Part shown: positions 2,696-23,484 of the stretch, piece by piece
How the letters are laid out: each line of letters opens with the position of its first letter
How positions within the stretch are numbered: the first letter of the stretch is position 1
Assembly (NCBI GenBank): GCA_041659405.1
Contig: JBAZYK010000008.1
Location: 1-32,000, forward strand
DNA length: 32,000 nucleotides
Direction: 5' to 3'
Origin: Candidatus Altimarinota bacterium
Lineage (GTDB): Bacteria; Patescibacteriota; Gracilibacteria; UBA1369
Notes under the pieces: generated by a model
Seen by the model: only the letters and a program-made list of their open reading frames with translations
Databases searched by the model: none
What the model was told of the DNA's origin: nothing
Program-made: the position numbers and the translations under genes

Positions 2696-2718
2696 ATCAA
2701 ATTAAAATAAATCTTTAT

Positions 2719-2727
2719 ATTATAGCA
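2719..2727 (-). promoter_or_regulatory. extended -10 promoter TGCTATAAT for the 824-aa gene
   Basis: The minus strand reads TTTTTTGCTATAATA (plus 2718-2732). The same 15-mer occurs at 8649-8663 upstream of the 951-aa gene. Confidence 0.5.
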
Positions 2728-2824
2728 AAAAACGCCCTTTTCAGCAATGCACCAGCCACAAAACCGCACTAAAAAACTTGCAAGAATGCAAAAGTATGGC
2801 AAATAGGGCGAAAAGGACAGAAAA

Positions 2825-3247: not shown

Positions 3248-3314
3248 AAGGAAAATTTATTTAATTCTATTTAAAATGTTGGTTAACGCACTTTTTGCGG
3301 CTTTCCCCCTGCCT

Positions 3315-5333: not shown

Positions 5334-5364
5334 ATATTTTTGTTTTAATTTTTATATTTGAGAT

Positions 5365-5724: not shown

Positions 5725-5760
5725 AAATTTTTATTAAAATTTTTATAAATAAGAAATATT

Positions 5761-8616
5761 TTAATGACTTTCCGGTGGCTTGTGCTCGTCCGGCTTAGGG
5801 GATTCAGCTCCACCATGCGCGGGCAACTCCTTGGCCTTTTTGCTGCCCTTTAAACCTTTTACAAAATTAATACCAGCTTTCCCCATGTCATATATTTCTT
5901 TTGCCGCTAATGCTTTTCCAAATAATTTCCAGGCATTTGTTAAAGTCTTAGTAGCAAAATGATGGAGCAGCGCTTCGCCACTTAAACCATGAGCTTTTGC
6001 TTCTTCATATTCTTTAATAATTGTGGCTTTTTGTTCAGCCTCAAGCACATGCGGAGAAAGCGTCCTCAATTTCTTATATAAATTCTTTTCGATATCCCCA
6101 CTCTGTTTTTGTTCAAGCTCAACTTGCGTCTTTACATGCTCCAGCATACGCACGGAAATCTCCTTTTTCTTATCATCTTCATTTTCCGGATGTTCCGCTT
6201 TGTAAATGCTTTGGCGCGTAATAAGTTCAGCTTCGGCAATGCGAACGTTATTGATAAGGACTTCAATATCCCAATCAAAATCATAAATTTCCACAGTTCT
6301 AGAGTGTCCATGCCCTTCATCGATCTTTTTATATCTAAAGATGCTTTCAAGACCTTGAGCAAATTCACGCAGTTTTTCCGCATCCATTGGGTGCTCGTTT
6401 AAAATATTGCGAATATCCGCAACAGTTGAGTGTTTTGTAAGATGTCTAAAATGGATAAGGTCGTCCTGGGCAATCGTTTCAATGGCATCCTGAGCCGTAT
6501 AGACGTTGGAGCTAAAGCGATTTTTTTGGATAAATTGCGTTTTGCGGCGCAACCAGCCTCTAAAGCCACCCATATTAGCCTCGGCCAGTTCATTATTGGC
6601 CGCCCCATGAACCCCGGCAGAACGCGCATCCGCAACCGCCAAATTGGCAGCAATATTTGCATATCGATCATTCATTTCCGGATTGGTAACACCCCTTGCC
6701 TCAAAATCCTGTTTCTTCAACAAGAACAAAAGCTGACGCGGCGTAGCCTTGCTCTTTGGATTGAGGTATTCCTTGTGTGTTTTGATTTCTTTTTTGAGCC
6801 TTGCTTGAAAATCTTCGGTAAATTTTTCACTGAAGAATTTAAAAAATCCAGAATCTGGTTGTGAGGAAACAACAGGTGCCGCAGTAGCTCCAGCTGCAGC
6901 AGGAACGATTGGAGGAAATAATTCAACACTTGTTGTTAGATTTGATGTTGATATTGCTATTAACTGATTCAGTCGTGGATCTATTTTGCTCGGTTCGTAA
7001 TCCACTGGAGGAGTTTTCGTCTTATCTTCTTGAATATCCTTATCAATTTTTGTTGTGCATGACTCACTATCAAAAACAGATGTAATTATTCCCGCTGCAC
7101 GTTTGAATTTACCCTCAAGCGCATTTACTTTTTTCAAAAGCTCTGATTTTTTTTCTCTTGCTGCCTTTAGGTTAGTCTCAGCATTTAAGAGGTTTTTTGC
7201 AACATCTGCCGCCGTTTGTCGTGCATTTGCCTGCATCTGCGCTGTGACTGGCCCCCCAGCGACTGCTGGTGTTGGTTTTGTTCTAGCTGAATTATAAGTT
7301 TCTTCAGCAGTTGCAAAGTTTTCATTTACCATTGAAGCTTCACCATAAGCCCCGATCAACTCTTGCAAATCTTTCTCATCAAAAAGAACCTTTTCCTGTT
7401 CTTCGATTTGCTCTTTTAGCTTAATCGATTCCGGCGTTTCTTTTCCTTCTTCAGTAGGTTTCTTTTCCTTGCTCGAAGGCAAGGCTCCATAAATTTTATT
7501 AAGTTTTTTTAGTAATTCAGCAGCACCCTTGGTTTTATAAATGTGTTCAAGTTCTAAAAGGAGTGCAGCATTATCAGCATTTTTAATGTTATACAAAGTT
7601 TCACCATTTGGAGTCTTATCTTTAAAAATTCTCTCAAATAGAACTGTATATGCTTCTTTTTCATCTGAACCATCGGCCCCATCTTTCAAAACATCCCTGA
7701 ATTTTTTGAGTTTATCGGGATCATGCCTGTCTTTACTAAACATTTTCGCTCTTTCCTCTGTTTCGATTTTGCGTAAAGCTACAAATTTATCGAAAACGTA
7801 TCTAAGGTCCGAATTTTTTGGGCCAAAGATAAAGAAAGTATCTCCACCCAGGTTGTAAGTCGTTTCTGAAATTTTTTTCAGCTGTGTATAAGTTAGACCC
7901 TTTAAAGAAACTAACAATTTACCAATATCAGATACAGGCGCAATACCAACCACTGCCAACATACTATTGACCGTCGTAGAAGCATTATCTAAAACATGTT
8001 CTAGATGGCTGCTCATGGATTTCATTAAACTCTCCTTCATCGCATCCAGCCCTCGGTTATTGCCAAAGTCTTGTTCTATTCGGCTGTCTACCATGTCGCC
8101 CTCTATAAAAATATTGCTTTTAATCTCTGGTCTTCCTTTGTACCTGTTATAAATGTTTACAAAAAAATCAATAAGGCCTTTAGGTACAATCTTGCTTTTT
8201 CCCTTTACAATCGCATGTCCGGCTTTGGTAGTTTTTTCCATAACCAAGCCTTTATCCCCAACTTCATGATGCATGCTTTTATGAACACTATGCTCAGAAA
8301 CCATTTTATCTCCGTGCTCAACAAAATCACGCAAACGTTTATGCATGCGGGCTTCCAAAATCTTGTCGCCAAAGTGGTGGCCAAGCGCGGCTGCAACATC
8401 GCCATGTACACCAAGTTGTGTATTGGTAACGTGCTTTTTGTCAGGTGAAGCATATAGCCGATCTATTCTTTCCTGACGCGCCAATTCAACTTCATGCAGC
8501 GCTTCATTCAGATGTTCATCATCCGGATTTGGTGGCGTGGATGAGCCATGGCTGAAAACCAATCTTTTAGGAATGGTGCATGACGATAGCGATTTATTTT
8601 TGCAGAAAAGTAGCAT
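5761..8616 (-). CDS. hypothetical protein, 951 aa
   Basis: Long ORF with ATG at 8614-8616. The promoter TGCTATAAT lies about 35 nt upstream. His-rich N-terminal third and K/E-rich remainder. No recognised domain. Confidence 0.8.
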   Translation of the reverse strand: MLLFCKNKSLSSCTIPKRLVFSHGSSTPPNPDDEHLNEALHEVELARQERIDRLYASPDKKHVTNTQLGVHGDVAAALGHHFGDKILEARMHKRLRDFVEHGDKMVSEHSVHKSMHHEVGDKGLVMEKTTKAGHAIVKGKSKIVPKGLIDFFVNIYNRYKGRPEIKSNIFIEGDMVDSRIEQDFGNNRGLDAMKESLMKSMSSHLEHVLDNASTTVNSMLAVVGIAPVSDIGKLLVSLKGLTYTQLKKISETTYNLGGDTFFIFGPKNSDLRYVFDKFVALRKIETEERAKMFSKDRHDPDKLKKFRDVLKDGADGSDEKEAYTVLFERIFKDKTPNGETLYNIKNADNAALLLELEHIYKTKGAAELLKKLNKIYGALPSSKEKKPTEEGKETPESIKLKEQIEEQEKVLFDEKDLQELIGAYGEASMVNENFATAEETYNSARTKPTPAVAGGPVTAQMQANARQTAADVAKNLLNAETNLKAAREKKSELLKKVNALEGKFKRAAGIITSVFDSESCTTKIDKDIQEDKTKTPPVDYEPSKIDPRLNQLIAISTSNLTTSVELFPPIVPAAAGATAAPVVSSQPDSGFFKFFSEKFTEDFQARLKKEIKTHKEYLNPKSKATPRQLLFLLKKQDFEARGVTNPEMNDRYANIAANLAVADARSAGVHGAANNELAEANMGGFRGWLRRKTQFIQKNRFSSNVYTAQDAIETIAQDDLIHFRHLTKHSTVADIRNILNEHPMDAEKLREFAQGLESIFRYKKIDEGHGHSRTVEIYDFDWDIEVLINNVRIAEAELITRQSIYKAEHPENEDDKKKEISVRMLEHVKTQVELEQKQSGDIEKNLYKKLRTLSPHVLEAEQKATIIKEYEEAKAHGLSGEALLHHFATKTLTNAWKLFGKALAAKEIYDMGKAGINFVKGLKGSKKAKELPAHGGAESPKPDEHKPPESH

Positions 8617-8649
8617 TTTAGTGTTGGTTTTTGAGAAAAATATCTAACT

Positions 8650-8658
8650 ATTATAGCA
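8650..8658 (-). promoter_or_regulatory. extended -10 promoter TGCTATAAT for the 951-aa operon
   Basis: The minus strand reads CGGCTTTTTTGCTATAATAGTTA. The 15-mer TTTTTTGCTATAATA is identical to the site at 2718-2732. Confidence 0.5.
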
Positions 8659-8685
8659 AAAAAGCCGTTAGTATGCCTCAAAACC

Positions 8686-11415
8686 ATGTTGACGATACGC
8701 CACGATCATGATACATTCACCTCCAACATAATTTCTACAACAATGACCAAAGGGCGCTTCATTGAAGATTTAGTACATGGTATACCCATATATCCTTTCA
8801 GTTCGACACCTGATGGTAGAATTGTTGGAGAGCTTCATCGTGGACGGATTGAGGCAAGAGATTTTCAAAGAGAAAGTTTAGCTGTTCAGGCAAATGCTTT
8901 GCGGGAAATAGCAAAACTACACGGAAACCAAACACAAATCAGCCCATCAGAATTCAGGGGCGAACAAACACGGGACGTGCTTATGGGGATGACAGGACAA
9001 TTGTATGATCTCCATAGCGCACAAAAGGATACAGTTAGACAACTAGAGGGCTTAAATCAGACCACCGCTCAAGGTTTTGGTGTCTTGCATGGTGATATGG
9101 GCGCGCTAAAAGGCCCTGATAACGGAACAAGTTCATTAGCTGACTTGATCAGAAAGGATTTTGGTTTATCAGAAGCATTGAGTGCTTATTTTAAAGGTGT
9201 CCTAAATAAGCAAGGAGAAGGGGAGATATTTTGGCTCCTTTACCATAAAGTGAGCATTCAAAAAGAAACAGAAGATGGAATTAGAAAAAAAATAGAAGAA
9301 GGTCTTGCCGATAGAGGGCGATCTCTTAATGAATTTCCAGAAATTAAAGACGCATTACGTTTATTAGACCACTACGATGTCAGGTATGACCTTGTCGGTA
9401 CTCAGAAAAAAACAAAAATTCTCGCTTTCTTAGCGAGCGAGTTCCAAATTGCCGATTTAAGAGTCTTTGTTAGACAAATGGAAGAGTTATTTACTCTTTT
9501 TGAACAAGCCAAAGCTCAGCCCATTAGAGAAGAAACTCTTTTAAGTTTAGCCAAAAATAATTATTTAACAGAGCCGATGCGTAATAGAGTTATGGAACTC
9601 TATCCCGAAGCGAGAAAAGACGCATCACTTACTACAATAAACTATAGTTTACTGGATTTACTTCGCGCAAACGTGGATGCCACAAGGCAAAGGACATTTC
9701 AAATTGCTGAAGGACTTGCAGTAATTGATCAGAATGAGGAGGCTTTAGCCCAAAACAGGCAAATGCTTGAGCAGGGTGAAAGTGCAAATGAAAAAAGTGA
9801 CATGATGATAAAGCAGGGTGACCACGCAATTAGGCAAAGACAAGTAATCACCGCGCAGGGCGCATATGGACTTGCACAAAACGCGCGTGCTATTGAGCAG
9901 AGGCAGGTAATCACAGCACAAGGCACAGTCGCAATTGCACAGGGCGCTCGCGCAATTGGACAGCGCGCTCGCGCAATTGGACAGCGCAATTTAACAAATT
10001 ACCGGCTTGGATCAATTTTAGACACAATGATAGACGTAAATGACAGTATAATAGATTTAACAGCTGTTGTTGAGGGTTTTTCCGACATGGTAAATGACGG
10101 TTTATCGCAAATTGACCAAACATTGAGTAATGGGTTTCAAGCAGTTGACCAAACATTGAGTAATGGGTTTCAAAGAGTTGATCAAACATTGAGTAATGGG
10201 TTTCAAGCAGTTGATCAAACATTGAGTAATGGGTTTCAAACCGTTGACTCTGGGCTTAAAAATATCGTAACGGAAATGGTGATAACTCGTGCCGCTGTAA
10301 TCGCCGATCTTGAAAGAATCGAGCGAGGAATTGGCACTGCTGCACAACAAGTAACAGAAGCTATAAATCGCGGCAATATAGCACTTGAAACCTTGGTACA
10401 TCTGAATAAAACCAGCCACAATGTTGAAGCTGGACAATATTTTGATGATGCCAAAGAATGTTTATTTACGGCTAAAACAAGGAATGACGTAAAAGATGCA
10501 TACGAAGGATTTTGTAAAAGTGCAGAAATCGTAAAATCAAGTGCTGAATATCAGTATGGTGCAGGTTATACATCTGAGCTTTTAGGAATGTTAGATGAGG
10601 CAAGCAGCCGCTATGAAAAGGTCACCACACGCGCTAAAGATGAGCAAAAAGACTTGGCTTCTAATGCTTTTGTCGGCATTGCCCGAATTCAACACCGACA
10701 AGGTGACACCGAAAACGCACTTGAAAACACAGGAAAGGCAATCGAATCAAATAAGAATAATGAAACTGCCCAATTTGATCAGTGCAAATACCTTTTATTG
10801 CTAGGTTTTGTTGATGAAGCTCTGAAAAATCTGGAAGAGATGATCAAGGCCAAGCCTTTATACTTTGCAAAAATGAGGGCCGAGCCAGCTTTTAAGCTGA
10901 TTCCTGTTGAAAAATTAAGAGAATTTTGGAAAGTTTTATTAGATGCAGATGCCATAAAATCACCCAAAAGTTTAGTCCTACTTTTAGAAGATATGATCGA
11001 AACCGAAAGTCTTGATTTGGCGAATACTGTGTTTTTTAGATTATTGGAAACAAATCCTAAAGCTTTACTTGATCGGAAAATTTGGTTACATCCGGGATTT
11101 AACAATCTGCTAAATAATGAAATAATTGCTGAAATAACTGTTTTTATAGAAACAAAAATGAATTTATTAGTTGAGGAAGATTGTTACATTATTTGCTCAC
11201 TTTTAAATTATTGTGGAACAACCGAAGTATCATTGCTTAAAGCATTTAAAATAGGATTGGAACAGGATCCTCTTTTTTATTCAGATTATCAGCCGGAAGC
11301 AAAGCGAAAATTAAAGGCAAAATTAATAAAATGCATGGGTAACCAGACAGAATCAATCCTGCGGAAATTAAAGAAAGAATGCGGAACTGATACTAAGTTT
11401 GACTGGGTATTTTAA
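8686..11415 (+). CDS. hypothetical 909-aa protein with heptad-based and 11-residue tandem repeats and a TPR-like C-terminal region (alternative start ATG 8743)
   Basis: Long ORF. The centre has a 21-aa repeat x2, ARAIGQR x2 and DQTLSNGFQxV x4. The C-terminal third has helical-pair, TPR-like patterns (AFVGIARIQHRQGDTENALENTGKAIE...). Start is ambiguous between 8686 and 8743. Confidence 0.8.
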   Translation: MLTIRHDHDTFTSNIISTTMTKGRFIEDLVHGIPIYPFSSTPDGRIVGELHRGRIEARDFQRESLAVQANALREIAKLHGNQTQISPSEFRGEQTRDVLMGMTGQLYDLHSAQKDTVRQLEGLNQTTAQGFGVLHGDMGALKGPDNGTSSLADLIRKDFGLSEALSAYFKGVLNKQGEGEIFWLLYHKVSIQKETEDGIRKKIEEGLADRGRSLNEFPEIKDALRLLDHYDVRYDLVGTQKKTKILAFLASEFQIADLRVFVRQMEELFTLFEQAKAQPIREETLLSLAKNNYLTEPMRNRVMELYPEARKDASLTTINYSLLDLLRANVDATRQRTFQIAEGLAVIDQNEEALAQNRQMLEQGESANEKSDMMIKQGDHAIRQRQVITAQGAYGLAQNARAIEQRQVITAQGTVAIAQGARAIGQRARAIGQRNLTNYRLGSILDTMIDVNDSIIDLTAVVEGFSDMVNDGLSQIDQTLSNGFQAVDQTLSNGFQRVDQTLSNGFQAVDQTLSNGFQTVDSGLKNIVTEMVITRAAVIADLERIERGIGTAAQQVTEAINRGNIALETLVHLNKTSHNVEAGQYFDDAKECLFTAKTRNDVKDAYEGFCKSAEIVKSSAEYQYGAGYTSELLGMLDEASSRYEKVTTRAKDEQKDLASNAFVGIARIQHRQGDTENALENTGKAIESNKNNETAQFDQCKYLLLLGFVDEALKNLEEMIKAKPLYFAKMRAEPAFKLIPVEKLREFWKVLLDADAIKSPKSLVLLLEDMIETESLDLANTVFFRLLETNPKALLDRKIWLHPGFNNLLNNEIIAEITVFIETKMNLLVEEDCYIICSLLNYCGTTEVSLLKAFKIGLEQDPLFYSDYQPEAKRKLKAKLIKCMGNQTESILRKLKKECGTDTKFDWVF
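8689..8717 (+). promoter_or_regulatory. candidate sigma70-like promoter TTGACG-17 nt-TACATT
   Basis: TTGACG at 8689-8694, a 17-nt spacer, then TACATT at 8712-8717. It lies inside the first codons of the tracked ORF, which suggests the real start is ATG 8743. Confidence 0.35.
9835..9985 (+). repeat. in-frame repeat: 63-nt unit x2 (QRQVITAQG...ARAI) followed by a perfect 21-nt unit x2 (gcgctcgcgcaattggacagc, 9944-9964 and 9965-9985)
   Basis: Direct reading of the sequence. The units are multiples of 21 nt (heptad register). The region is locally GC-rich. Confidence 0.85.
10114..10245 (+). repeat. 33-bp tandem repeat x4 encoding DQTLSNGFQ(A/R/T)V
   Basis: Units at 10114, 10147, 10180 and 10213. 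The 24-nt core caaacattgagtaatgggtttcaa is identical in all four. Differences occur only at unit position 3 and positions 28-30. Confidence 0.95.
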
Positions 11416-11424
11416 TTTTATTTT

Positions 11425-12483
11425 ATGAACACTTCTTCAACAGAAAATCCGGAACTGAAAGTTTTTGTTAAAATCAACAGTCAAACGCTGCTGGCAGGCA
11501 ACAAAATGAACCTTAATGTTGATGCATTAGTTATGAGAGGTAACAGCACCGTCAGCCACAAACCTGTAATTTTTGAAGTTGCTGGTAATCAAAAACAAGT
11601 AACAACACCTGAAAATGGGCTAATTGAAAACAGGGGTCTTGTTTTTGATTATGTTGAAGGTGTTAGAACAAAGCTAAAAGCTTGGGCTAAGGGATCAGAG
11701 ACTCAGGTGAGTGAATATGATGTAACTCTGGAAAGTTATGGAAGTACGTTGTTAGATAGTGCAGCAAAAACTGTAAGAGCGGAAATAAGTGAAGAGTTTA
11801 AACAAAGAGAAGAAAAGTTAAGCGAGGAGTTTAAACAAAGAGAAGAAGAACTGATAAGGGACTTAGAAAGTAAAAATAAACAATTGGTTCAAAAACCCGA
11901 AGAAGAATTGTCCCGGGCAAATGCTGAATTTCTTGCTTCCCCTAATCGAAAAGCAGAATATGCGGCTCGTAAAGCTATGTTAAAAAATAAAGAACAAGCT
12001 ACCGGTATGCCAACTTTTGAAGAATGTATAGAAGCAATGAAGAAAAAAGGTAATAAAGTGCTTAATGCCTTGAGAGCAAAAACACAAGACCCAAGACTTA
12101 CCATAGCTGTTATAGTTGGAAAAGATGGTAAAGTTAAGAGTTTTAGACCGGGTTTTATAGAAGCAAAAGCGGATCCTGATTTTTTAAGAGATAAAGCCAA
12201 TCCTAAAAATTATGTAGGAAAACATTACGATAAAGTTTATGCTGACCTAAGCCCGCACGGGTTACGTGAGCCGGATTTTGATGAATATTGTGCAATTGAT
12301 CAATTTGGTCACGGTTATACTATGCTTGATATGGAAAATAGGGTGGATAAAGTCGCATCGGTGCCGCTCGCGGATGAGTTTACTGGTAATCCCTATCAGT
12401 ACTGGAATCTTCCTGGTGATCAGAATGAGTACCTTGTTTCGCGTCCTTCGGTCTGGGGAGATGATCTGCCACCCAAAAACTAG
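11425..12483 (+). CDS. hypothetical protein, 352 aa, paralog 1 (N-terminal beta-rich Ig-like region, coiled-coil centre, conserved C-terminal domain)
   Basis: ORF with ATG start 9 nt after the 909-aa stop. Clear similarity to the next gene along its whole length. Internal duplication EEFKQREE(K/E)L x2 at about 11790-11860. Confidence 0.8.
   Translation: MNTSSTENPELKVFVKINSQTLLAGNKMNLNVDALVMRGNSTVSHKPVIFEVAGNQKQVTTPENGLIENRGLVFDYVEGVRTKLKAWAKGSETQVSEYDVTLESYGSTLLDSAAKTVRAEISEEFKQREEKLSEEFKQREEELIRDLESKNKQLVQKPEEELSRANAEFLASPNRKAEYAARKAMLKNKEQATGMPTFEECIEAMKKKGNKVLNALRAKTQDPRLTIAVIVGKDGKVKSFRPGFIEAKADPDFLRDKANPKNYVGKHYDKVYADLSPHGLREPDFDEYCAIDQFGHGYTMLDMENRVDKVASVPLADEFTGNPYQYWNLPGDQNEYLVSRPSVWGDDLPPKN
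12028..12155. repeat. 128-nt block nearly identical to 13162-13289 (1 mismatch)
   Basis: Aligned by eye. atagaagcaatgaagaaaaaaggtaataaagtgcttaat[g/a]ccttgagagcaaaaacacaagacccaagacttaccatagctgttatagttggaaaagatggtaaagttaagagttttagaccgggttt. Confidence 0.9.
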
Positions 12484-12525
12484 TCTTCAAATTTTAGTTT
12501 TATTTAATTTTTTCTTTTTATACAT

Positions 12526-13701
12526 ATGCCTCCAACAGAAAATTCGGAAACAAAAGTTTTCGTTAAAATCAACAGTCAAACGCCGCTAACGGGTAACAAA
12601 ATACACCTTAATGTTGATGCATTAGTTGTGAAGGGGAGTCACACCATCTCACATCAACTTGTGATTTTTGAAATTGGCAGTCACCAAAAACAGGTAACCA
12701 CACTTGAAAATGGGCTAATTGGAAATATTAACCTTGTCTTTGAGTATATTGAGGGTGTTCGAACAAAATTAAAGGCTTGGGTTAAGGGGGCGGAGAATCA
12801 GGTGAGCGAATATGATGTAATTCCACAAAATCACGAGAATGTCTTAAAGGATTCTATTGAGCGACGTTTGCATGGAGAGTTTCAAAGTAAAAAAGAAGCT
12901 TTAATGCGAGGTTTTGATAATAAAGAAACAAGTTATGGCAATACAATCGATGAAATGGCTGAAAAAATAAAAAGATTAGAAGGTAGACTTCAAATCGGCG
13001 AGCCTGAATTAAAACAATTGGTTCAACAACCCGAGGAAGAACTATCACGGGAAAATGCTGAATTTCTAGCTGATCCTAAGCGCAAGGCTGAATATATTGC
13101 ACGTAAAGCTAGGTTGAAAAATAAAGAACAAGCTGCCGGTATGCCTACTTTTGAAGAATGCATAGAAGCAATGAAGAAAAAAGGTAATAAAGTGCTTAAT
13201 ACCTTGAGAGCAAAAACACAAGACCCAAGACTTACCATAGCTGTTATAGTTGGAAAAGATGGTAAAGTTAAGAGTTTTAGACCGGGTTTGATAGAAGCAT
13301 ATCCGTCTCCTCATTTTTTAAGAGATAGAGCTAATACGGAAAATAATGCAGGAAAACATTACGATAAAGTTTATGCTGACCTAAGCCCGCACGGGTTGCG
13401 TGAACCGGATTTTGATGAATATCGTGCAGTTTTTGAAACGGTGCAGGCGATGGGCGATGGGCTTATCGATACCAAATATATGTATACAATGCTTGATATG
13501 GGAGAGCGAAAGGATAAAGGCGTAGCGGTGCCGCTTGCTGCTGAGGCCTTTGGTGGGCCTGGTATACTTTTGTTATATCCTCCTCATGTGGGGGCATCCC
13601 TTGTTTCGCGTCCCTCCACCTGGGGGGACGATATGCTGCACGCAACCGGAGGTGAGTGTGCGCCAATGAATCCGTGGAGTGAGGGGCTCGTGCGCAGATG
13701 A
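12526..13701 (+). CDS. hypothetical protein, 391 aa, paralog 2
   Basis: ORF with ATG start. The N-terminal 100 aa and a region of about 130 aa align with the 352-aa neighbour. The centre and extreme C-terminus diverge, and the C-terminal 80 codons are GC-richer. Confidence 0.8.
   Translation: MPPTENSETKVFVKINSQTPLTGNKIHLNVDALVVKGSHTISHQLVIFEIGSHQKQVTTLENGLIGNINLVFEYIEGVRTKLKAWVKGAENQVSEYDVIPQNHENVLKDSIERRLHGEFQSKKEALMRGFDNKETSYGNTIDEMAEKIKRLEGRLQIGEPELKQLVQQPEEELSRENAEFLADPKRKAEYIARKARLKNKEQAAGMPTFEECIEAMKKKGNKVLNTLRAKTQDPRLTIAVIVGKDGKVKSFRPGLIEAYPSPHFLRDRANTENNAGKHYDKVYADLSPHGLREPDFDEYRAVFETVQAMGDGLIDTKYMYTMLDMGERKDKGVAVPLAAEAFGGPGILLLYPPHVGASLVSRPSTWGDDMLHATGGECAPMNPWSEGLVRR
13162..13289. 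repeat. partner of the 12028-12155 near-identical block
   Basis: Same alignment, offset 1134 nt. A second perfect 48-nt block pairs 12216-12263 with the equivalent segment of paralog 2. Confidence 0.9.
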
Positions 13702-13708
13702 AAGCGCG

Positions 13709-13728
13709 GGGTGAGTGTATACTCACCC
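13709..13728 (+). terminator. hairpin after paralog 2 (gggtgagt-gtat-actcaccc), no U tract
   Basis: 8-bp perfect stem with a 4-nt loop, 8 nt after the stop codon. It is followed by ataaaac rather than a T run, so terminator function is uncertain. Confidence 0.3.
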
Positions 13729-13780
13729 ATAAAACATTCCACATTTTCGTCATCAGAATTTACAGATTTGATGTGGATTT

Positions 13781-14947
13781 TTGGGCATGTTAGAGGGAAA
13801 ATTTGAATACAAACTCACATGGAATTCCATGGATTTTATTCAAGATTTAACCAAAGAAAATATGCAAACAAATATTCAAAAAATAACGGTTCAGGAAAAA
13901 ATTCTGCATGAAAAATTTGTAACGTTTGGTAGGAACGCCAAGGAATGGATTTGGAAGTGCTCTTTGCTGCTTCCGGAGATCGAAAAACAGGAAATTTGGA
14001 AGAAAAAAGGTTTCGGGGACATTTACGAATATGCGGCAAAGTTGGCGGGGATGAGCCATCCTGCGGTCGATGATGCTTTGTGGGTTTTGAAAAAAATTGA
14101 AGACAAGCCGGCTTTGCTGAAAGTTGTGGAAACAAAAGGAATTAATGCTGTGCGGCCGGTGGTCACGATTGCAACCCGAGAGAATATGGATTTTTGGGCT
14201 GAAAAAGCTATGCAAATGAGTCATCATACTTTACAAACTTACGTTCGGGAACTTAGAAAAGAAATGCCATTTACGCACGAAGCGCTTATTTCTACTGCGG
14301 GCGGGGCGGGCTTCGCACATGATAATTTTGAAAATTCAGAATTAATCAATTCTACCAAAAATCAAATTGGCTTATTTGAACCAAAAAATGACGATTTTCG
14401 TCGGGACGTTCCGAAATTCAACACCAAAACAGAAAATGGACAAATTGTCACTTTGCCATTGGGGGAGCCAAAAAAACTTGTGGCCATGCAGCTCGATCCG
14501 GAAATTCTGGAGCAACTGGAAAAATTAAAAGGTGAAAATGGCGATTGGAATGATCTGATGAAACAACTTTTGCAGATGCGGGAAGAACATCTTGAAGAGC
14601 AAAAACCGGAACCGATGAAGACCGATTCGCGGCATATTCCGGCCAAAATCGACCGATATGTTACTTCAAGAACAAATGGCCAGTGTGCATTTCCGGGCTG
14701 CAATAAAAAAATCAACATCAAGCATCACACGCAAAGATTCGCACTCGAAAAAACTCATGATTCTGACCGGCTTTATGGCTTATGTAAAGCACACGAACGG
14801 ATTGCACATTTGGGGTTAATCGAGAATGAAGATTTGTCGCCGAAGTTATGGAAAGTCCGAAAATCGGCTGATATAACCAGTGAAATAGGCAAAGCAAAAT
14901 TCGCAATTGATCAAATCGTGCAAAAGTTTAGGACTTCGCCTGCATGA
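13781..14947 (+). CDS. HNH endonuclease domain protein (N-terminal helical/HTH-like region, C-terminal HNH)
   Basis: The C-terminus reads CAFPGCNKKINIKHHTQRFALEKTHDSDRLYGLCKAHERIAHLG, i.e. a CxxC...HH...CxxH HNH/zinc-finger pattern. The tracked start is TTG at 13781. ATG 13787 or a later ATG is equally possible. Confidence 0.75.
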   Translation: MGMLEGKFEYKLTWNSMDFIQDLTKENMQTNIQKITVQEKILHEKFVTFGRNAKEWIWKCSLLLPEIEKQEIWKKKGFGDIYEYAAKLAGMSHPAVDDALWVLKKIEDKPALLKVVETKGINAVRPVVTIATRENMDFWAEKAMQMSHHTLQTYVRELRKEMPFTHEALISTAGGAGFAHDNFENSELINSTKNQIGLFEPKNDDFRRDVPKFNTKTENGQIVTLPLGEPKKLVAMQLDPEILEQLEKLKGENGDWNDLMKQLLQMREEHLEEQKPEPMKTDSRHIPAKIDRYVTSRTNGQCAFPGCNKKINIKHHTQRFALEKTHDSDRLYGLCKAHERIAHLGLIENEDLSPKLWKVRKSADITSEIGKAKFAIDQIVQKFRTSPA

Positions 14948-19057: not shown

Positions 19058-20248
19058 TTAAAGATTTTTAAGAATTTCACTCAAATATCGGCTATTTTGT
19101 TCAGCCAAATTTTTGAAAATTGGTTTTTTATACGCCAGATTTTTTTGGATCAGTTCGTAGTTATCGAGCAGTTTTTCAAAATTGTCCTGCAGATCTTCAG
19201 CTTCAAAATGGCTCCACTTAAGTAAATATTCTTCTTTTTGCAAAGAATGTACAAAAGAAACCACCTTTTGGCTATAGGCCAAAGCCAAAAAAGGCGTTTC
19301 GGTCAAAGTTGCGAAAATCAGACTATGCAGGCGCATGCCAACAACGGCCTTTGCTTTCGCCATCAATTTTAAAACCTCACGATAATCGGAAGTGAATTCA
19401 AAAATTTCCACGGCATTTTTATTCAGAACAGAATTATAAATTTCCTCCAATGGTTTTACGTCATTATCCAAAACAAACTGAAAGGGGACTAACACAGTCC
19501 TTAAGCCTTTTTTTTGATAGAGCCAATCAATAAATTTGGCCAATTTTTTTAGTTTTGATTCATCGTGAGAACTCCATGGGCGAACGGAAAGGACAACATA
19601 ATTTTCGCGCTTTGCGGAAAGTGACATGCTTGTTGTCTGCGTTAAGCCTGATGCGTCCGGACCTTCAAACTCCACATCCAGGAAAAAAGCCGGATCGGTC
19701 AGAACATGGGCATTATGTATGCCGAGTTTTTGCAGGACGATAGCCGAAGAAGCATCTCGCACAGTAATAACTTTCGCTTTTTTAAAGACAACTTTGGTCA
19801 TGTGTCGGCCAAAAAATGTCATTAAAGGTCCAACACTTTGCCCCAAACAAAAAATCGGTTTATTGAAAAAACGGGCAGCTGCAGCCTGAATCGACCAAAT
19901 CAAAATCGCCAAAGGCCGTTCATCCGTAAAAAGTCCGCCTCCACCCAAAATAAAAATGTCACAATTTTTAATGGCACGCAAAGTTTCTAGCAGCCCTTTT
20001 TTAGTTAAAGCTCGCCAAAAAGAACGAAAGCCGGCAGGAAGAAGATGGACGGTTTTAAGTTGGTTCTCATCAGCAAAATTAGTTTGGTGCGCCTGCGCCG
20101 TTTCTTCCGGATTATGGCTCATTACCGTGATATTCGCCGGAGTCGCTTTTTTCACCAACGCCAAAATTCCATCCAAAATCGCCTCATCCCCAAGATTAGA
20201 AGCGCCATAATTGCCACAGATGACGATATTTTGTTTATTTTGAGCCAA
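19058..20248 (-). CDS. polysaccharide pyruvyl transferase family protein (CsaB-like)
   Basis: The N-terminal GNYGASNLGDEAILDG motif and the later GGGGLF..., LGQSVGP and MRLHSLIFA segments are typical of the family. The start codon is TTG (20246-20248). Confidence 0.75.
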   Translation of the reverse strand: MAQNKQNIVICGNYGASNLGDEAILDGILALVKKATPANITVMSHNPEETAQAHQTNFADENQLKTVHLLPAGFRSFWRALTKKGLLETLRAIKNCDIFILGGGGLFTDERPLAILIWSIQAAAARFFNKPIFCLGQSVGPLMTFFGRHMTKVVFKKAKVITVRDASSAIVLQKLGIHNAHVLTDPAFFLDVEFEGPDASGLTQTTSMSLSAKRENYVVLSVRPWSSHDESKLKKLAKFIDWLYQKKGLRTVLVPFQFVLDNDVKPLEEIYNSVLNKNAVEIFEFTSDYREVLKLMAKAKAVVGMRLHSLIFATLTETPFLALAYSQKVVSFVHSLQKEEYLLKWSHFEAEDLQDNFEKLLDNYELIQKNLAYKKPIFKNLAEQNSRYLSEILKNL

Positions 20249-20336
20249 AGTGGATGTAATAAAGAAACCTTACTTCGATTGTATAAAACAGACGAGGAAA
20301 CTGACAGCCCATTGTGGGCCTTAGCGTTGACAAAAA

Positions 20337-20345
20337 TGCTAAAAT
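20337..20345 (+). promoter_or_regulatory. extended -10 TGCTAAAAT (TTGACA at 20327-20332 is too close to serve as its -35)
   Basis: Same TGCTAnnAT pattern as the promoters at 2719, 8650 and 26255. It points into the GC-rich block. Confidence 0.4.
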
Positions 20346-20449
20346 ATAGTATCCTTCGCCTCCTGGTCACGAGTTTTCGTGATGAAGGTCGATTTGCACT
20401 TAAACGTGCCGTTTGACACTTCTTCATGACTTGAGATCAGTCGTTCTTT

Positions 20450-20464
20450 GAAAAGTCGCATTAG
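20450..20464. repeat. left copy of a perfect 15-bp inverted repeat (gaaaagtcgcattag)
   Basis: The reverse complement ctaatgcgacttttc occurs at 21509-21523. The pair brackets the GC-rich segment. Confidence 0.9.
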
Positions 20465-20705
20465 TACGATCTCTAACAGAGATCGATATGTATATAAGTT
20501 ATTGGCTACAGGCCAAACAGCCTTCAGGGGCTCAAATTTGCAAGCAAGTGCACGGGATTGCAGGCAGATTTGGGTCTCTGAAGGTTGCTCGCGCAACAAC
20601 CCAAGGAAGACTCGGTTCGCGCAGAATTTTGCGTGGATCTCTCAGCAGTTCGTTTCGTACGAAACCTCAAGAGGACCGCTTCGGGCAACCGGACGGTTTA
20701 GACAC

Positions 20706-21374
20706 ATGCGTCGACGCGTTCTCGGTTACATGGGCGCAGTCGTTGTTGCCATCATGGCTATCAACGGCTGCAAAAAGGGGCCGCCCTGCGACCCCCAGAG
20801 CGAAGTTTTGCTCAACGACGTGTGTCGTGACTGGTGCGATCCGGGAAACCACGCACGTGGTGCGAAGATCGACGGCGAGTGCGTCAATGCCTCGTCCGTT
20901 GACCCCAGCTACCAAGAGCCTGGGACCACTGGCAGCACCACGGTCAACAACACGACCACGGTGAACAACACGACCACGGTGAACAACACGACGGGTGCTG
21001 GTGGAAGCACGAGCACGACGACCACCACGGCGACCAACACGGGCGCTGGCGGCGGTACGGGCTCGACTATCACCTTCGCGTCCGACGACATGATGCTCTT
21101 GGGCAGCGATGGAGGGTTCTACCCCCAGCTCACGAGCAAGTCGTTCTCGTTCACGGGTGGTATGTCATTCGCGCTGACGGCGCAGAACTACATCGACGTC
21201 TCGGTGCAAGGCTGCAACATCAACGCGTACGACTACAGCCCTGCTGGATGGGATAAGAACACCCTCGGCAACGCACTGGCCGGAACGCCGGGTAAGCTCG
21301 AGCCTCTCACGATCCCGATCAGCGCGTTCCCCGGGAAATTCGGCAGCTTCATCTTCGATGTGACCTGCCCGTAG
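20706..21374 (+). CDS. GC3-rich putative lipoprotein, 222 aa, Cys-rich N-terminal region and Thr/Asn/Gly-rich linker
   Basis: MRRRVLGYMGAVVVAIMAINGC reads as an n-region, an h-region and a lipobox-like NGC. Codons strongly prefer G/C at the third position, unlike every other gene in the window. The tracked TTG start 20448 is rejected because the signal peptide begins at ATG 20706. Confidence 0.7.
   Translation: MRRRVLGYMGAVVVAIMAINGCKKGPPCDPQSEVLLNDVCRDWCDPGNHARGAKIDGECVNASSVDPSYQEPGTTGSTTVNNTTTVNNTTTVNNTTGAGGSTSTTTTTATNTGAGGGTGSTITFASDDMMLLGSDGGFYPQLTSKSFSFTGGMSFALTAQNYIDVSVQGCNINAYDYSPAGWDKNTLGNALAGTPGKLEPLTIPISAFPGKFGSFIFDVTCP
20937..20990 (+). repeat. 18-bp tandem repeat x3 (accacggtSaacaacacg) encoding TTVNNT x3
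   Basis: Units at 20937, 20955 and 20973. Units 2 and 3 are identical and unit 1 differs at one base. Confidence 0.95.
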
Positions 21375-21390
21375 CCCCATCCGGCAGTTC

Positions 21391-21481
21391 GGAAGGGGAG
21401 ACGCCTATTGCGCAATGCATAGGTTCGCGGTTTTACTACCGCACGTTATCAACGCCATGTTGATCGACGGTCTCCCCTTCC
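21391..21481 (+). other. 91-nt cloverleaf-like element: 12-bp closing stem plus three internal hairpins
   Basis: ggaaggggagac (21391-21402) pairs with gtctccccttcc (21470-21481). Inner hairpins are cctat/atagg (21404-21423), gcggt/accgc (21427-21442) and atcaac/gttgat (21448-21464). It starts 17 nt after the lipoprotein stop and has no U tract. Confidence 0.5.
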
Positions 21482-21508
21482 TGGAGCAGTGGATGTTAAC
21501 TTTAAACT

Positions 21509-21523
21509 CTAATGCGACTTTTC
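21509..21523. repeat. right copy of the 15-bp inverted repeat (ctaatgcgacttttc)
   Basis: Exact reverse complement of 20450-20464. Confidence 0.9.
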
Positions 21524-21619
21524 TATCCTAAATTTTTGATTAAAATTTCAAGTCAGCTAAATCGAAAACTAACCCTAAATAAAAAAGGGGATTTTATGTT
21601 ATTCAAAATTTTTTAATAC

Positions 21620-21755
21620 GGGCTGGGCAGTGCAATTTGAAGACATGTGCAGAGCGCAGCTGCCCGATGGATCATGATCCGGAGGGCTTCGCGAGGCCGT
21701 ACATGTTAGGCCGAGTGAAACAGCGAAGCGTTCTTCAAATTGCACTGCCCAGCCT
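21620..21755. other. GC-rich element closed by a perfect 23-bp stem around an 88-nt structured interior
   Basis: ggctgggcagtgcaatttgaaga (21621-21643) is the exact reverse complement of 21732-21754. The interior contains ggatcatgatcc, ggcttcgcgaggcc and two acatgt palindromes. It lies between the convergent lipoprotein and kinase genes. Confidence 0.6.
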
Positions 21756-22683
21756 GCAATGATCTATTTTTAATTAAATCAACTCCTCCCCAAAATTCTC
21801 TTCGTAGCGCTTTTTAAATTCCTGCCACGTGAATTTGTGGCCCTGCGTTCCGTGATTTTCCAGATTGTATGTTGCGGCAAGGGCGCCGATTTTGCAGGAT
21901 TTTTCCAGACCGTAATTCATTTCCATTCCAGCCAAAACTCCGGCTCTGAAGGCATCTCCGCAACCTGTGGGATCAACAATGTTAGAAGCCTTCACCGCAT
22001 GCACAAAATAATTGCCATCGTAGTCGCGCACACTGGCCCCACGGTCGCCGTGAGTCTCAATGTAGCATGGTGTCATCGTGCTGAGTTTTTCACGCGTTAT
22101 ACCCAGTTTTTTAGCTAAAAGCTCCGCCTCGTAATCATTCGCGATCAAAAGTTCCGCGCCTCCTATCGCCGTCAGCAACTGCGCCGGTGATAAACTGCCA
22201 ATTTGCTGCGCCGGATCAAAAATATATTTAATTTTATGTTCGGAACATTCCTGGCTTAATCTAACCATTCTCGCCGCGTCATCAGGCGCGATAATCGCCC
22301 AGGTGATCGCCCGATCCGCATAATCTTTAATTTGAATTGCATGTGGAGCGCTGCCCATAGCCCCAATCTGAAACATCGTGATTTGATTCAAACTTTTATC
22401 CGTCAAAATGTAAGCACTTGCTGTATAAAACTCCTTATTTGTCACAATACTCGAAGCGTCGATTCCATTGTCTTCAAGCCATTTTTTGTACTCATCAAAA
22501 TCTTTTCCGGCCACGCCAACAAGCAGCGGATCGCAACCCAACAACTTCAAAGTATAAGCAATATTCCCGCCGGTTCCACCATAATGCACCTTCTTGCTGT
22601 TAGACGTAAAAGTCACACTCAAACTATCCAGCTTTTGCGGCAAAAGCATGTCTTTAAAATACCCGTCATATTCCATTACATGG

Positions 22684-23484
<801 letters not shown>

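Follow-up and report, generated by a model that had tools for sequence, protein, structure and literature searches.

Why should a single gene position in a Gracilibacteria genome hold a short block of strikingly high GC content, and is this block a foreign arrival, a product of the host lineage itself or an artefact of assembly? The question touches on CPR bacteria, which are attached to other cells; to our knowledge, the surface molecules that mediate this attachment, and the variation of these molecules, are hardly known.

A GC-rich block that is real and inherited

The window, that is, the whole 32-kb stretch of DNA analysed here, has a GC content of 40%, against ~59-62% for the block at 20505-21497. 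Among 1-kb windows across the 32 kb, the GC content stayed between 0.34 and 0.45 with the sole exception of 20501-21500 (0.588), and the tetranucleotide distance was also maximal in this interval (0.70, against a median of 0.31). The lipoprotein gene within the block had a GC3 of 0.794, compared with 0.378±0.064 (maximum 0.519) in the 22 other genes of the window (z=6.5). With GC of 0.59-0.62 against 0.40, the GC3 outlier and the tetranucleotide peak, the block departs from its host in composition and codon usage as a horizontally acquired island would. The abrupt change reported in the initial annotation was confirmed by both sliding GC and tetranucleotide distance, and its hand counts were reproduced exactly (0.58 for 20941-21000, 0.72 for 21001-21060 and 0.30 for 19081-19140). 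It had described the codons as ending almost always in G or C, which is right as to the outlier status of the gene but mildly overstates the actual figure of 79%. The extent that it gave, 20440-21760, is close to the segment without nucleotide similarity to the AT-type relatives described below (~20360 to ~21760), whereas the GC-rich core is narrower, with boundaries at 20505 and 21497. An alternative code in which the host reads UGA as glycine was ruled out, as 4 of the 23 genes terminate in TGA and the ORFs read with table 11 are unbroken.

A composition switch of this abruptness could also be produced by an assembly chimera or a contaminating GC-rich fragment, as the annotation had considered, and the only non-syntenic homologue of the gene lies on a contig of 993 nt. 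The same locus was found with 100% identity in the Logan assembly of SRR6484324 and with 99.77% identity in the ENA assembly ERZ27249449, where one 18-nt repeat unit is the sole difference; a biological repeat-number polymorphism is thus present within the block. The related strain L015, with flanks ~92% identical to those of the window, carries the GC-rich block with both junctions, and its lipoprotein gene has a GC3 of 0.786 in a host of 43% GC; the right junction recurs in L016. Since the junctions are identical in independent assemblies and recur in diverged strains, whose flanks have co-diverged by ~8%, the block is not an assembly chimera, an explanation that we regard as practically eliminated. 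The GC-rich block is real and inherited.

A variable gene for a probable lipoprotein at a conserved locus

The block contains a CDS (20706-21374, + strand, like all features given below) for a probable surface lipoprotein of 222 amino acids, recognized from its ORF, its dN/dS and its homology to the gene at the same position in relatives. The product begins with a signal and lipobox (residues 1-22, lipobox-like AINGC), followed by a Cys-rich module (residues 23-80), a Thr/Asn/Gly-rich linker (residues 81-118) with TTVNNT repeats of 18 nt (20929-20990 in the DNA), and a variable β-sandwich C-terminal domain (residues 119-222). The mature protein has 7 Cys and is rich in T, G, S and N, in agreement with the lipoprotein-type signal and the Cys-rich and Thr-Asn-Gly-rich mature part read from the sequence earlier. 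Lipobox-like motifs also occur in the homologues (YIAAC in L015, FASC in L001, APAC in L013 and L014), and the N-terminus is hydrophobic in all of them; the NCBIfam lipoprotein match of the product was below threshold. The protein is probably exposed on the cell surface. The dN/dS between alleles was 0.36-0.58, which shows that the ORF is coding, and together with the conserved Cys and motifs this excluded a large non-coding RNA in place of a gene.

The position of this gene, hereafter the slot, is conserved in the clade. It adjoins a PfkB kinase gene in a neighbourhood of surface-glycan genes (rmlA/rmlD/rmlB-like, FdtA and pyruvyl transferase). In L013 and L014, the AT-type relatives, the order is RmlD-RmlA-kinase-[lipoprotein]-pyruvyl transferase-RNase HII-L19, and the slot holds a distant homologue (27-33% amino acid identity) with host-like GC3 of 0.25-0.26 and the same orientation, architecture and promoter. 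The window lipoprotein matched the slot gene of these relatives at E=8e-11 by tblastn, and in the more distant L018 the slot likewise holds a lipoprotein of host composition. Among the contigs listed in the protein search with a kinase identical to that of the window, the longest measures 84 kb. Gene order and sequence comparison establish the AT-type and GC-type genes as homologous in position and, at the level of distant protein similarity, in sequence. No empty site was seen between the pyruvyl transferase and the kinase in close relatives, where the annotation had proposed to look for one: L013 and L014 carry the homologue there, and L015 and L016 share the GC-rich block. Its description of the block as filling one intergenic gap is therefore misleading, as a resident gene was replaced. 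A counterpart of the block with host-like composition, which it had named as evidence against a foreign block, was seen as distant protein homology only and not at the DNA level.

Searches for a source of the gene gave few results. No GC-rich donor was found among 15 billion proteins, and an exhaustive profile search of 1.84 billion representatives with searches of 5.8 billion clusters returned only four relatives of the lipoprotein family. Three of the four sit at the same locus of the same clade and the fourth (P0001, in L001) is on the unplaced 993-nt contig; the family therefore has five known full-length members, each at the slot or unplaced. In phage and plasmid collections, tblastn and blastn gave only low-complexity matches to the ACGACCACG repeat, and an origin from a phage or plasmid is not supported. 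The suggestion of a horizontally acquired surface antigen consequently stands in part: the gene probably encodes a surface lipoprotein and its composition looks foreign, but it is homologous to the slot gene of relatives and has no detected donor.

Comparison of the alleles showed that they are much more diverged than their surroundings. Between the window and L015, nucleotide identity was 92.2% in the flanks and 91-100% at 20201-20600, fell to 49-70% in the CDS and rose again to 99% at 21401-21500; at the protein level, the lipoproteins were 47% identical and the neighbouring proteins 87-97%. For the GC-type genes, the lipoprotein had a dS of 1.17 and a dN of 0.68, against 0.29 and 0.022 for the neighbouring kinase, while in the AT-type pair the dS of the lipoprotein (1.32) was near that of the kinase (1.06). 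All GC-type alleles had a GC3 of 0.79-0.81 despite a dS of ~1. The lipoprotein alleles are far older than their flanks. Their relationships also disagree with those of the strains, as the CDS of the window is nearer to that of L001 than to that of L015, though L015 is the closer relative. In L016, the 3' UTR is identical to that of the window, and the C-terminus appears by eye to be nearer to that of L001 than to that of the window. The L001 leader is a mosaic in which blocks matching the window and L015 alternate. The alignments show the alleles and the leader to be mosaic and phylogenetically incongruent, and the mosaic leader, with the disagreement between allele and flank trees, indicates an exchange of old alleles through recombination within the conserved non-coding arms. 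That the exchange proceeds by recombination would be read from these mosaic patterns; adaptive loci have been described as recombination hotspots in bacteria (PMC11879095).

Predicted RNA structure around the gene

A sigma-70-like promoter (TTGACA ... TATAGT/TATCCT, 20327-20355) was located by promoter scan upstream of the slot gene, which it serves, divergent from the pyruvyl-transferase gene. It is common to the AT-type relatives, aligning with TTGACA..TATAAT of L013 and L014, and nucleotide homology to these relatives ends ~20 nt downstream of it. The distal leader (20358-20449) has a host-like GC content of 40-50% and a hairpin at 20366-20383 in the fold of the full transcript; it is 96-100% identical to that of L015 and is missing in the AT-type relatives, whose leader is only ~35 nt. 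It is followed by the left arm (GAAAAGTCGCATTAG, 20450-20464) of a perfect 15-nt long-range inverted repeat, detected by repeat search, whose right arm (CTAATGCGACTTTTC, 21509-21523) precedes a U-rich tract. A repeat of 15 nt was attained in none of 1000 simulations. In the predicted MFE structure of the 1.2-kb transcript, the arms pair at 15 of 15 positions with a probability of 0.99, and both arms are present in L015 and the right arm also in L016.

Three-way alignment and folding identified a segment specific to the window lineage (20465-20502), which stands in place of 14 nt of L015 and carries the hairpin CGATCTCT-aac-AGAGATCG at 20467-20486. The GC-rich core begins with a long leader hairpin (20518-20587) of 24 bp, including 5 G·U pairs, and a 4-bp tip; one of its G·U pairs is an A-U pair in L015, and the presence of G·U pairs speaks for folding as + strand RNA. 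The proximal leader (20572-20705) is conserved at 87-90% with L015 and L001. Because this conservation extends over different reading frames in the three sequences, the proximal leader is non-coding, and an upstream extension of the ORF to 308 amino acids from the TTG at 20448 was excluded, since indels shift the reading frame of the conserved leader between the window and L001. The proximal leader is predicted to fold into a helix GGGUCUCU/GG-AAGACUC (20572-20613), alternative to the long leader hairpin, a GNRA-capped or extended hairpin (20614-20639), a hairpin domain (20640-20672) and a GCAA-capped hairpin (20673-20699), with an unpaired GGUUUAGACAC at its 3' end preceding the ATG of the lipoprotein gene. 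In the two conformations predicted for the leader, 20572-20579 would pair either with ~20526-20533 in the 5' arm of the long hairpin or with 20604-20613. Separate folds of the window, L015 and L001 sequences agreed. Across the sequences, 100% of cells were paired, against 22-49% with the partners slid, and three compensatory pairs were seen; the observed covariation was attained in 43 of 500 shuffles, a weak statistic because only 3-4 GC-type sequences are available.

Downstream of the gene, a four-way junction is predicted at 21391-21481, in which a closing stem (GGAAGGGGAGAC/GUCUCCCCUUCC) and one further folded pair enclose three hairpins. The closing stem is invariant in sequence, and the fold had a z of -8.3 in the window and -7.7 in L001, where all three inner hairpins are kept with changed arm sequences. 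A small separate GC-rich hairpin at 21620-21757 belongs to a 133-nt insertion (21597-21731) that is specific to the window and absent from L015 and L016. Through this insertion, 21620-21643 can pair perfectly with 21732-21755 in a hairpin of 24 bp, whose loop of 88 nt is GC-rich; L015 and L016 have only the 3' arm of this hairpin, and the insertion, which has no other copy, probably lies outside the cassette proper. Against dinucleotide shuffles, the fold z was -6.3 for the 5' region, -5.1 for the 3' region and -7.5 for this second hairpin, which bears out the unusual structure that the initial annotation had attributed to the non-coding sequence on both sides. No counterpart of the leader or the 3' junction was found in the AT-type relatives L013 and L014.

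Known RNA families did not account for these elements. Rfam 15 gave no match at gathering score over the window and only a chance miRNA match (E=1.4) in 20200-21900, and viral motif scans for the RNA elements of the cassette gave none. Eight genome contigs from unrelated phyla (L002-L009) matched the 3' stem pattern, all as chance purine-rich hairpins with different flanks, and the single metagenome match to a leader 21-mer (L010) was a chance match within a peptidase ORF. The leader and 3' junction would most likely control translation or stability, and the ends of the transcript are themselves predicted, with a start near 20360 and a 3' end at 21523 or beyond.

The 15-bp repeat at 20450-20464 and 21509-21523 could instead be read as the terminal inverted repeats of a non-autonomous DNA transposon, MITE-like or passenger-carrying, mobilised in trans. 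Such a perfect repeat bracketing the core and its UTRs (1074 bp) is very unlikely by chance, the composition is foreign, and no autonomous functions lie inside. The flanks of the arms (...GTTCTTT|GAAAAG and CTTTTC|TATCCTA) share no repeat, so that no target-site duplication is seen. Neither the arms nor the block occurred a second time in the 32-kb window or the compared loci, and the placed copies are all syntenic, at one locus. No tRNA was found in the window, and a Pfam scan of 22 host ORFs, with all genes adjoining the block among them, gave no match to an integrase, transposase or RT; the annotation had likewise noted no integrase, transposase or tRNA next to the block. Neither integrase, tRNA nor direct repeats adjoin the block in the window. 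In addition, the arms sit in host-like rather than GC-rich sequence, and the repeat is explained equally well as an RNA helix. We consider a transposon improbable, and the non-autonomous mobile cassette proposed earlier finds no support at this locus.

The 3' junction raises the further idea of an integron-type or other structured-site cassette, in which the four-way junction would be a single strand that recombines in folded form. The arrangement does resemble a cassette with attC, as one ORF precedes an imperfect palindrome with conserved outer stem and variable centre, and the foreign composition would suit it. A regex search of 21361-21540 found no RYYYAAC or GTTRRRY core site, the same Pfam scan of host ORFs gave no integrase and no cassette array, and the gene, preceded by a long leader of its own, lies behind a resident promoter. 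The G·U pairs imply folding of top-strand RNA and not of bottom-strand DNA, and crossovers occur at scattered positions along the leader, a pattern expected of homologous and not of site-specific exchange. An integron-type cassette is very improbable, even more so than a transposon.

Origin of the GC-type gene and comparison with known systems

The explanation that we favour, and hold to be moderately probable, is a hypervariable lipoprotein cassette in which a GC-rich homologue displaced the AT-rich resident in situ and old alleles are exchanged by recombination. According to this model, the slot beside the PfkB kinase, inside the cell-surface sugar cluster, would hold a fast-evolving lipoprotein gene across the whole Gracilibacteria clade. 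In the sub-lineage of the window, a GC-rich homologue would have displaced the resident AT-rich gene with the native promoter retained, bringing with it a structured leader of ~350 nt and the 3' four-way junction, and the 15-bp helix between the ends would close the transcript into a single RNA domain. Several anciently diverged GC-rich alleles would circulate among close strains and be exchanged by homologous recombination, with crossovers located in the conserved non-coding arms, so that divergence would rise and fall near the CDS borders. The conservation of the arms is proposed to result from their being folded functional RNA and from their role as recombination arms. Diversifying selection on the surface protein would most likely keep the alleles distinct, and the selective agent may be recognition of host, prey or phage.

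The foreign origin of the GC-type gene, which this model implies from its composition, has points against it. No GC-rich donor was found in protein, phage or plasmid searches, the near-saturated synonymous sites with GC3 ~0.8 in genomes of 40-43% GC are hard to square with long residence, and the precise arrival of a ~30%-identical homologue in the orthologous slot lacks an explanation. These points bring in another explanation, in which the GC-richness was made and kept locally, the AT-type gene becoming GC-type in situ under a locus-specific GC-favouring force that also sped up its divergence. Candidate forces are GC-biased heteroduplex repair at a recombination hotspot, selection for a base-paired transcript and, in line with a proposal made for Borrelia vls, a composition that promotes recombination. 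The types are homologous and share locus, orientation and promoter, and the absence of any detected GC-rich donor and the GC3 that all GC alleles hold despite their dS fit this explanation. Moreover, each of the three GC-type CDSs has a more stable predicted fold than its shuffles with synonymous codons (z=-3.0, -3.6 and -4.5), unlike the AT-type CDS (+1.7) and eight host genes (-2.0 to +2.6), and a precedent is given by vls cassettes, at 49% GC in Borrelia genomes of 28.6% GC, which have been interpreted as selectively maintained (PMC11499132). However, polarised substitutions showed no W-to-S excess (12:20 and 13:12, against 30:40 for the kinase, all small numbers), no precedent is known among bacteria for a sharply bordered GC3 shift from 0.25 to 0.79, the AT-type relatives have no counterpart of the leader and 3' junction, and the mosaic patterns already indicate exchange among pre-existing alleles. 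We regard a local origin as possible but rather unlikely. We would be just as hesitant to see in the closing helix, switch-like leader, structured CDS and 3' junction a GC-rich RNA-structured cassette that is not foreign at all, driven and held in situ; the forces then supposed are suggested with equal reserve, either a process particular to the locus and linked to its hyper-recombination, or selection in favour of extensive base pairing in the transcript.

The locus is a compact and well-delimited case of strain-level hypervariability in a CPR bacterium, with three unusual properties: its alleles are much older than the genomes carrying them, its GC3 is ~0.8 in hosts of 40-43% GC (~0.38 for the window) without a detectable donor, and it has two new conserved RNA structures. 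These are a leader of ~200-350 nt, with GNRA hairpins and a possible alternative pairing, and the 3' four-way junction, both predicted and joined by the long-range helix. If the composition is imported, this would point to an unsampled GC-rich gene pool exchanging with Gracilibacteria. If it is locally maintained, the locus would be an independent case of the vls-type GC anomaly, this time in a CPR lineage and with no silent cassettes, and would offer a way to study the influence of recombination, or of selection on RNA structure, on bacterial base composition.

Displacement of the resident by a GC-rich homologue, the explanation favoured here, resembles xenologous displacement or a genomic islet, in which a homologue of foreign composition takes the place of a resident gene at the locus of the latter. 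It differs in that no donor lineage was found, both genes belong to a family known only at the slot locus, and the replacing gene is in turn polymorphic, existing as several old alleles. Integron gene cassettes share the single ORF and the 3' imperfect palindrome with conserved outer stem and variable centre, but here core sites, integrase and array are absent, the promoter is resident and the long leader is the gene's own. DGRs are common in CPR bacteria, and DGR targets are similar in the variable C-terminal lipoprotein domain, the AAC-rich codons and the hairpin right after the stop codon; the allele differences here, in contrast, affect all four bases (A is involved in 43-47%) throughout the CDS, with no RT Pfam match in the host ORFs scanned and no template repeat in the window. 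The vsp/vlp genes of Mycoplasma likewise belong to reduced genomes and combine conservation of the 5' non-coding and signal region with a highly variable, repeat-containing lipoprotein sequence downstream. They form multi-copy families per genome, undergo phase switching and are as AT-rich as their host, whereas one GC-rich copy was found here in the search of the window and the L015 contig.

The O-antigen rfb and capsule cps loci have alleles older than the species, exchanged via conserved flanks, with an atypical AT-rich composition of unknown donor. The present locus is like them in its deep alleles, atypical GC, conserved flanks and surface-glycan neighbourhood. They are multi-gene, AT-rich and have housekeeping genes as arms, while here a single GC-rich gene has structured UTRs as arms. 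The vls locus of Borrelia, with the expression site vlsE, is a variable surface lipoprotein gene of 49.1% GC in a genome of ~28.6% GC, with inverted repeats at the junction of the expression site and recombination-driven variation (PMC11499132), and it resembles the present gene as a GC-rich variable lipoprotein gene in an AT-rich genome with inverted repeats and variation that here, too, would arise by recombination. Blastn and tblastn of the GC-rich block against the masked 32-kb window and the L015 contig gave no second copy and no silent cassettes, unlike the silent donor array of vls, and the GC skew of the CDS is small (-0.029), against ~0.52 for vls (PMC11499132). There is no similarity in sequence or fold between vls and the window lipoprotein, the variation here is between strains and not within a clone, and the structured leader, four-way junction and long-range helix set the present locus apart from vls.

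A GC-rich gene among core chromosomal genes

The window had a GC content of about 40%, with each 1-kb window at 0.34-0.45 except 20501-21500, which reached 0.588. In 300-nt windows, GC rose from 0.39 (20200-20499) to 0.58-0.62 (20600-21399) and was back at 0.40 by 21500-21799; a recount of the three hand-counted segments of the initial annotation gave exactly the same values. The tetranucleotide distance to the window average was highest on the block (0.70 versus a median of 0.31), and the GC3 of its gene was 0.794, against 0.378±0.064 (maximum 0.519) in the 22 other genes of the window (z=6.5). By GC, GC3 and tetranucleotide distance alike, the block looks compositionally foreign, as first described.

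The sole plausible gene in the block (20706-21374, + strand) encodes a probable surface lipoprotein of 222 aa, in which a hydrophobic signal ending in AINGC is followed by a Cys-rich module, a Thr/Asn/Gly-rich linker and a C-terminal domain, with seven Cys in the mature part. The conserved Cys residues and motifs, together with a dN/dS of 0.36-0.58, show that this ORF is a real gene. Its 308-aa upstream extension was rejected because the leader, the 5′ non-coding arm of the block, although conserved, is read in differing frames between strains. The linker consists of 18-nt repeats at the DNA level, and the copy number of the TTVNNT-encoding unit (20929-20990) is polymorphic; the richness of the linker in N-x-T motifs suggests a glycosylated stalk. 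The AlphaFold model was confident only for the C-terminal β-sandwich (pLDDT about 80), which had no significant match in PDB or BFVD, and the lipoprotein had no match in Pfam, NCBIfam or PHROGs.

An assembly chimera had initially been considered. The locus was found with its block in two further assemblies, the Logan assembly of SRR6484324 (100% identical over 7.6 kb) and the ENA assembly ERZ27249449 (L011), where the loss of one TTVNNT unit (about 2450) was the sole difference over 7.7 kb. The GC-rich gene was also found in diverged strains, at the same junctions in L015 (Logan SRR22388057; flanks 92% identical to the window, GC3 0.786 in a contig of 43% GC) and at the same right junction in L016 (NCBI JAHZTO010253989). 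Since a chimera could not co-diverge with its flanks, this explanation was discarded.

The neighbors of the block are core chromosomal genes (IF-2, ProRS, trigger factor, L19, RNase HII and rhamnose/surface-sugar genes), and NCBI annotation places the adjacent kinase in a Candidatus Gracilibacteria MAG. TGA is the stop of 4 of 23 genes, and therefore the standard genetic code applies in the host. No tRNA was found, and a scan of 22 host ORFs detected neither an integrase nor a transposase, in agreement with the initial annotation, and neither a recombinase nor a reverse transcriptase. The TIR-transposon reading is weak because target-site duplications, a second copy and a transposase were not found in the sequences compared and every placed copy lies at one locus, and with it the proposed non-autonomous mobile cassette was abandoned. 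An integron cassette was rejected, as attC core motifs and an integrase were not found, and so was a DGR target, as the alleles differ on all four bases across the whole CDS and the window contains neither an RT nor a template repeat. The block is real, neither a mobile cassette nor an artefact, and more than a simple islet.

Other features of the window were also recorded. Eight successive ORFs at 221-14947 (824, 140, 672, 951, 909, 352, 391 and 388 aa) had no Pfam domain, the sole signal being one sub-threshold TPR match in the 909-aa ORF; they form a long series of uncharacterised proteins, possibly of the surface or specific to the lineage. In the ORF calls, the kinase begins 44 nt inside the end of the upstream glucose-1-phosphate thymidylyltransferase gene (22684-22727, minus strand), and the ORF listings of L011-L016 show this overlap too.

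The slot between the kinase and the pyruvyl transferase

The block had been described as filling an intergenic gap, and the comparison with relatives for an empty site found a homologous lipoprotein gene instead. In L013 and L014 (kinase 79-82% identical to that of the window), the gene order was that of the window, and the slot between the kinase and the pyruvyl transferase contained, on the same strand, a gene of 240 or 228 aa with host-like composition (AT-type; GC 0.38-0.39, GC3 0.25-0.26). Its product had the same architecture (lipobox, Cys-rich module, Ser/Thr-rich linker and C-terminal domain), with the C-terminal motifs SDDM, FTG..SF, (D/A)FPG and the terminal Cys in common, and was 27-33% identical to the window lipoprotein (tblastn E=8e-11 for the C-terminal domain). 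Window and relatives could be aligned at the promoter (TTGACA at 20327, TATA box around 20345-20355), then lost nucleotide similarity near 20360-20375 and regained it only at the kinase stop, about 21760-21774. The AT-type gene had a leader of ~35 nt and ordinary Rho-independent terminators. In the more distant L018 (kinase 61%), a lipoprotein gene of host composition was convergent on the kinase, the N-terminal CGNPQC motif being the sole recognisable likeness. The genes of L013, L014 and L018 point to a slot that has held a fast-evolving lipoprotein gene since long ago, and whose AT-type resident was probably displaced by a GC-rich homologue in the sub-lineage of the window. A single metagenome assembly, GCA_020049755.1 (NCBI), yielded both L014 and the GC-type L016, so the two types coexist in one habitat.

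Single-sequence and profile searches of 5.8 billion protein clusters and an exhaustive HMMER profile search of 1.84 billion representatives returned four relatives only, the AT-type L013 and L014 and the GC-type L015 and L001; L016 is an additional, partial GC-type allele. The protein, phage and plasmid searches found no homologue in any GC-rich organism, phage or plasmid. The suggested acquired surface antigen was upheld in part: the product is a probable surface lipoprotein of foreign-looking composition, but it is homologous to the gene of relatives in this slot, and the searches gave no donor. L001, a Logan contig of 993 nt, comes from SRR22388063, whose run accession is near that of L015; it ends on both sides where its sequence turns identical to L015-type flanks, which would fit an allele bubble in a de Bruijn graph.

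No Shine-Dalgarno motif was recognisable before 13 start codons of the window (e.g. 8686, 15164, 17544 and 22727), nor before the GC-rich gene and the AT-type gene of L013. L19 (17544-18089) carries an acidic Glu/Ala-rich C-terminal extension of ~60 aa and has 181 aa, versus 162-163 aa in L013 and L014.

Structured RNA elements around the gene

Both non-coding flanks had much stronger folds than their shuffled controls (z=-6.3 and -5.1), and no Rfam family matched. The leader contains a long 24-bp hairpin (20518-20587) with five G·U pairs, one of them A-U in L015; these pairs would be mismatches if the other strand folded. Three hairpin domains lie downstream of it. One, at 20614-20639, ends in a GAAA cap in L015 and a GUAA cap in L001 but is extended in the window; another, at 20673-20699, has a GCAA cap in all three sequences. 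In their alignment, the 55 predicted leader pairs were standard in 140 of 140 cells, versus 22-49% with partners slid by 1-3 columns; pairing was kept in all seven variable pairs, with both sides changed in three. The covariation shuffle control, a weak one with three sequences, reached the observed value in 43 of 500 shuffles, and the conserved pairing is no more than suggestive. The segment GGGUCUCU (20572-20579) could pair within the long hairpin or with GG-AAGACUC (20604-20613). All three sequences can still form the latter helix, although its 3′ strand has four substitutions and an indel; the two predicted pairings suggest a structural switch.

The 3′ element, a four-way junction (21391-21481), starts 16 nt after the stop codon. 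Its closing stem of 12-13 bp and about 15 nt on either side were sequence-invariant, the three inner hairpins were still paired in L001 with changed sequences and loop sizes, and independent folds of the window (z=-8.3) and L001 (z=-7.7) agreed in topology. Gene, leader hairpins and 3′ element all lie between the two arms (20450-20464 and 21509-21523) of a perfect inverted repeat of 15 nt, a length reached in 0 of 1000 simulations. In the fold of the predicted 1.2-kb transcript its arms paired at 15/15 positions with a probability of 0.99, and in L015 the left arm pairs at 14/15 positions with a contiguous right-arm stretch (8823-8836). The GC-type CDSs also folded better than synonymous-codon shuffles (z=-3.0, -3.6 and -4.5), an excess found neither in the AT-type CDS (+1.7) nor in eight host genes (-2.0 to +2.6).

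Several differences between strains adjoin these elements. A second long-range complement (20427-20437 and 21545-21555; 11 nt, 1 mismatch) lengthens the closing helix in the predicted fold of the window; in L015, most of its 3′ partner is lost to a deletion of 16 nt. A segment specific to the window lineage (20465-20502) immediately follows the left arm of the 15-nt repeat; it stands in place of 14 nt of L015 and contributes a small perfect hairpin, CGATCTCT-aac-AGAGATCG. A 133-nt insertion in the window (21597-21731), missing from the close strains L015 and L016, repeats in exact inverted form the 24 nt already present beside the kinase stop and brings in an 88-nt loop of about 60% GC, giving a perfect 24-bp hairpin (21620-21643 and 21732-21755; z=-7.5 versus shuffles). 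The intergenic region of the block has in this way gained a second GC-rich insertion, independent of the first.

Probable allele exchange and the source of the GC-richness

Nucleotide identity between the window and L015 was 92.2% in the flanks, 91-100% at 20201-20600, 76% at 20601-20700, 49-70% in the CDS (20701-21400) and 99% at 21401-21500. The lipoproteins were 47% identical, compared with 97% for the kinase, 87% for the pyruvyl transferase and 91% each for RNase HII and L19. By the Nei-Gojobori method, the lipoprotein gene had a dS of 1.17 and a dN of 0.68, against 0.29 and 0.022 for the kinase. Protein-level selection alone is insufficient for this hypervariability, since synonymous sites also diverge far beyond the flanks, and the GC-type alleles predate the genomes carrying them. 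For L013 and L014, the lipoprotein dS (1.32) was near that of the kinase (1.06), with a dN/dS of 0.11, as in ordinary vertical descent.

In every domain the window CDS resembled L001 more closely than L015 (78% versus 58% aa in the Cys-rich module, for example), and L016 had a 3′ UTR identical to that of the window with a C-terminus nearer, by eye, to that of L001. Judged from these sequences, the CDS kinship and the L016 pattern disagree with the flank kinship, and the trees are incongruent. The leader is also a mosaic, as L001 has CCCAAGGAAGACTCGG in common with the window, and an 8-nt deletion with a GNRA hairpin plus the CCGAGCAATCGGG segment in common with L015. Mosaic and incongruence are both marks of pre-existing alleles that have recombined, the crossovers falling in the non-coding arms. 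We consider, with moderate confidence, that this is a hypervariable surface-antigen locus, created by in-situ displacement and exchanged by recombination.

The GC-type alleles kept a GC3 of 0.79-0.81 throughout, although about one substitution per synonymous site apart and carried in genomes of 40-43% GC. Either an unsampled GC-rich gene pool feeds the locus repeatedly via the conserved arms, or the GC-richness is generated and maintained locally. Local generation and maintenance is the chief alternative, and we regard it as rather unlikely. The composition could then be kept up by selection for a base-paired transcript, by a bias linked to recombination or by a requirement like that of vls. 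This variable-lipoprotein locus has 49.1% GC in a genome of about 28.6%, a difference believed to have selective causes (PMC11499132), and shows that such a locus can remain GC-rich in an AT-rich genome. A recent survey disputes biased gene conversion as the source of GC variation in bacteria (PMC11879095). Polarised changes (W-to-S:S-to-W) were few, with 12:20 and 13:12 counted for the block and 30:40 for the kinase.

The locus resembles vls in being a variable-lipoprotein locus that stays far more GC-rich than its genome (PMC11499132). Unlike vls, the block had no GC skew, and no silent cassettes were found in the window or the L015 contig; a vls-type locus was rejected for want of these defining features. 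What distinguishes it is a GC-richness without a known donor and two previously undescribed structured RNA elements linked by a long-range helix.
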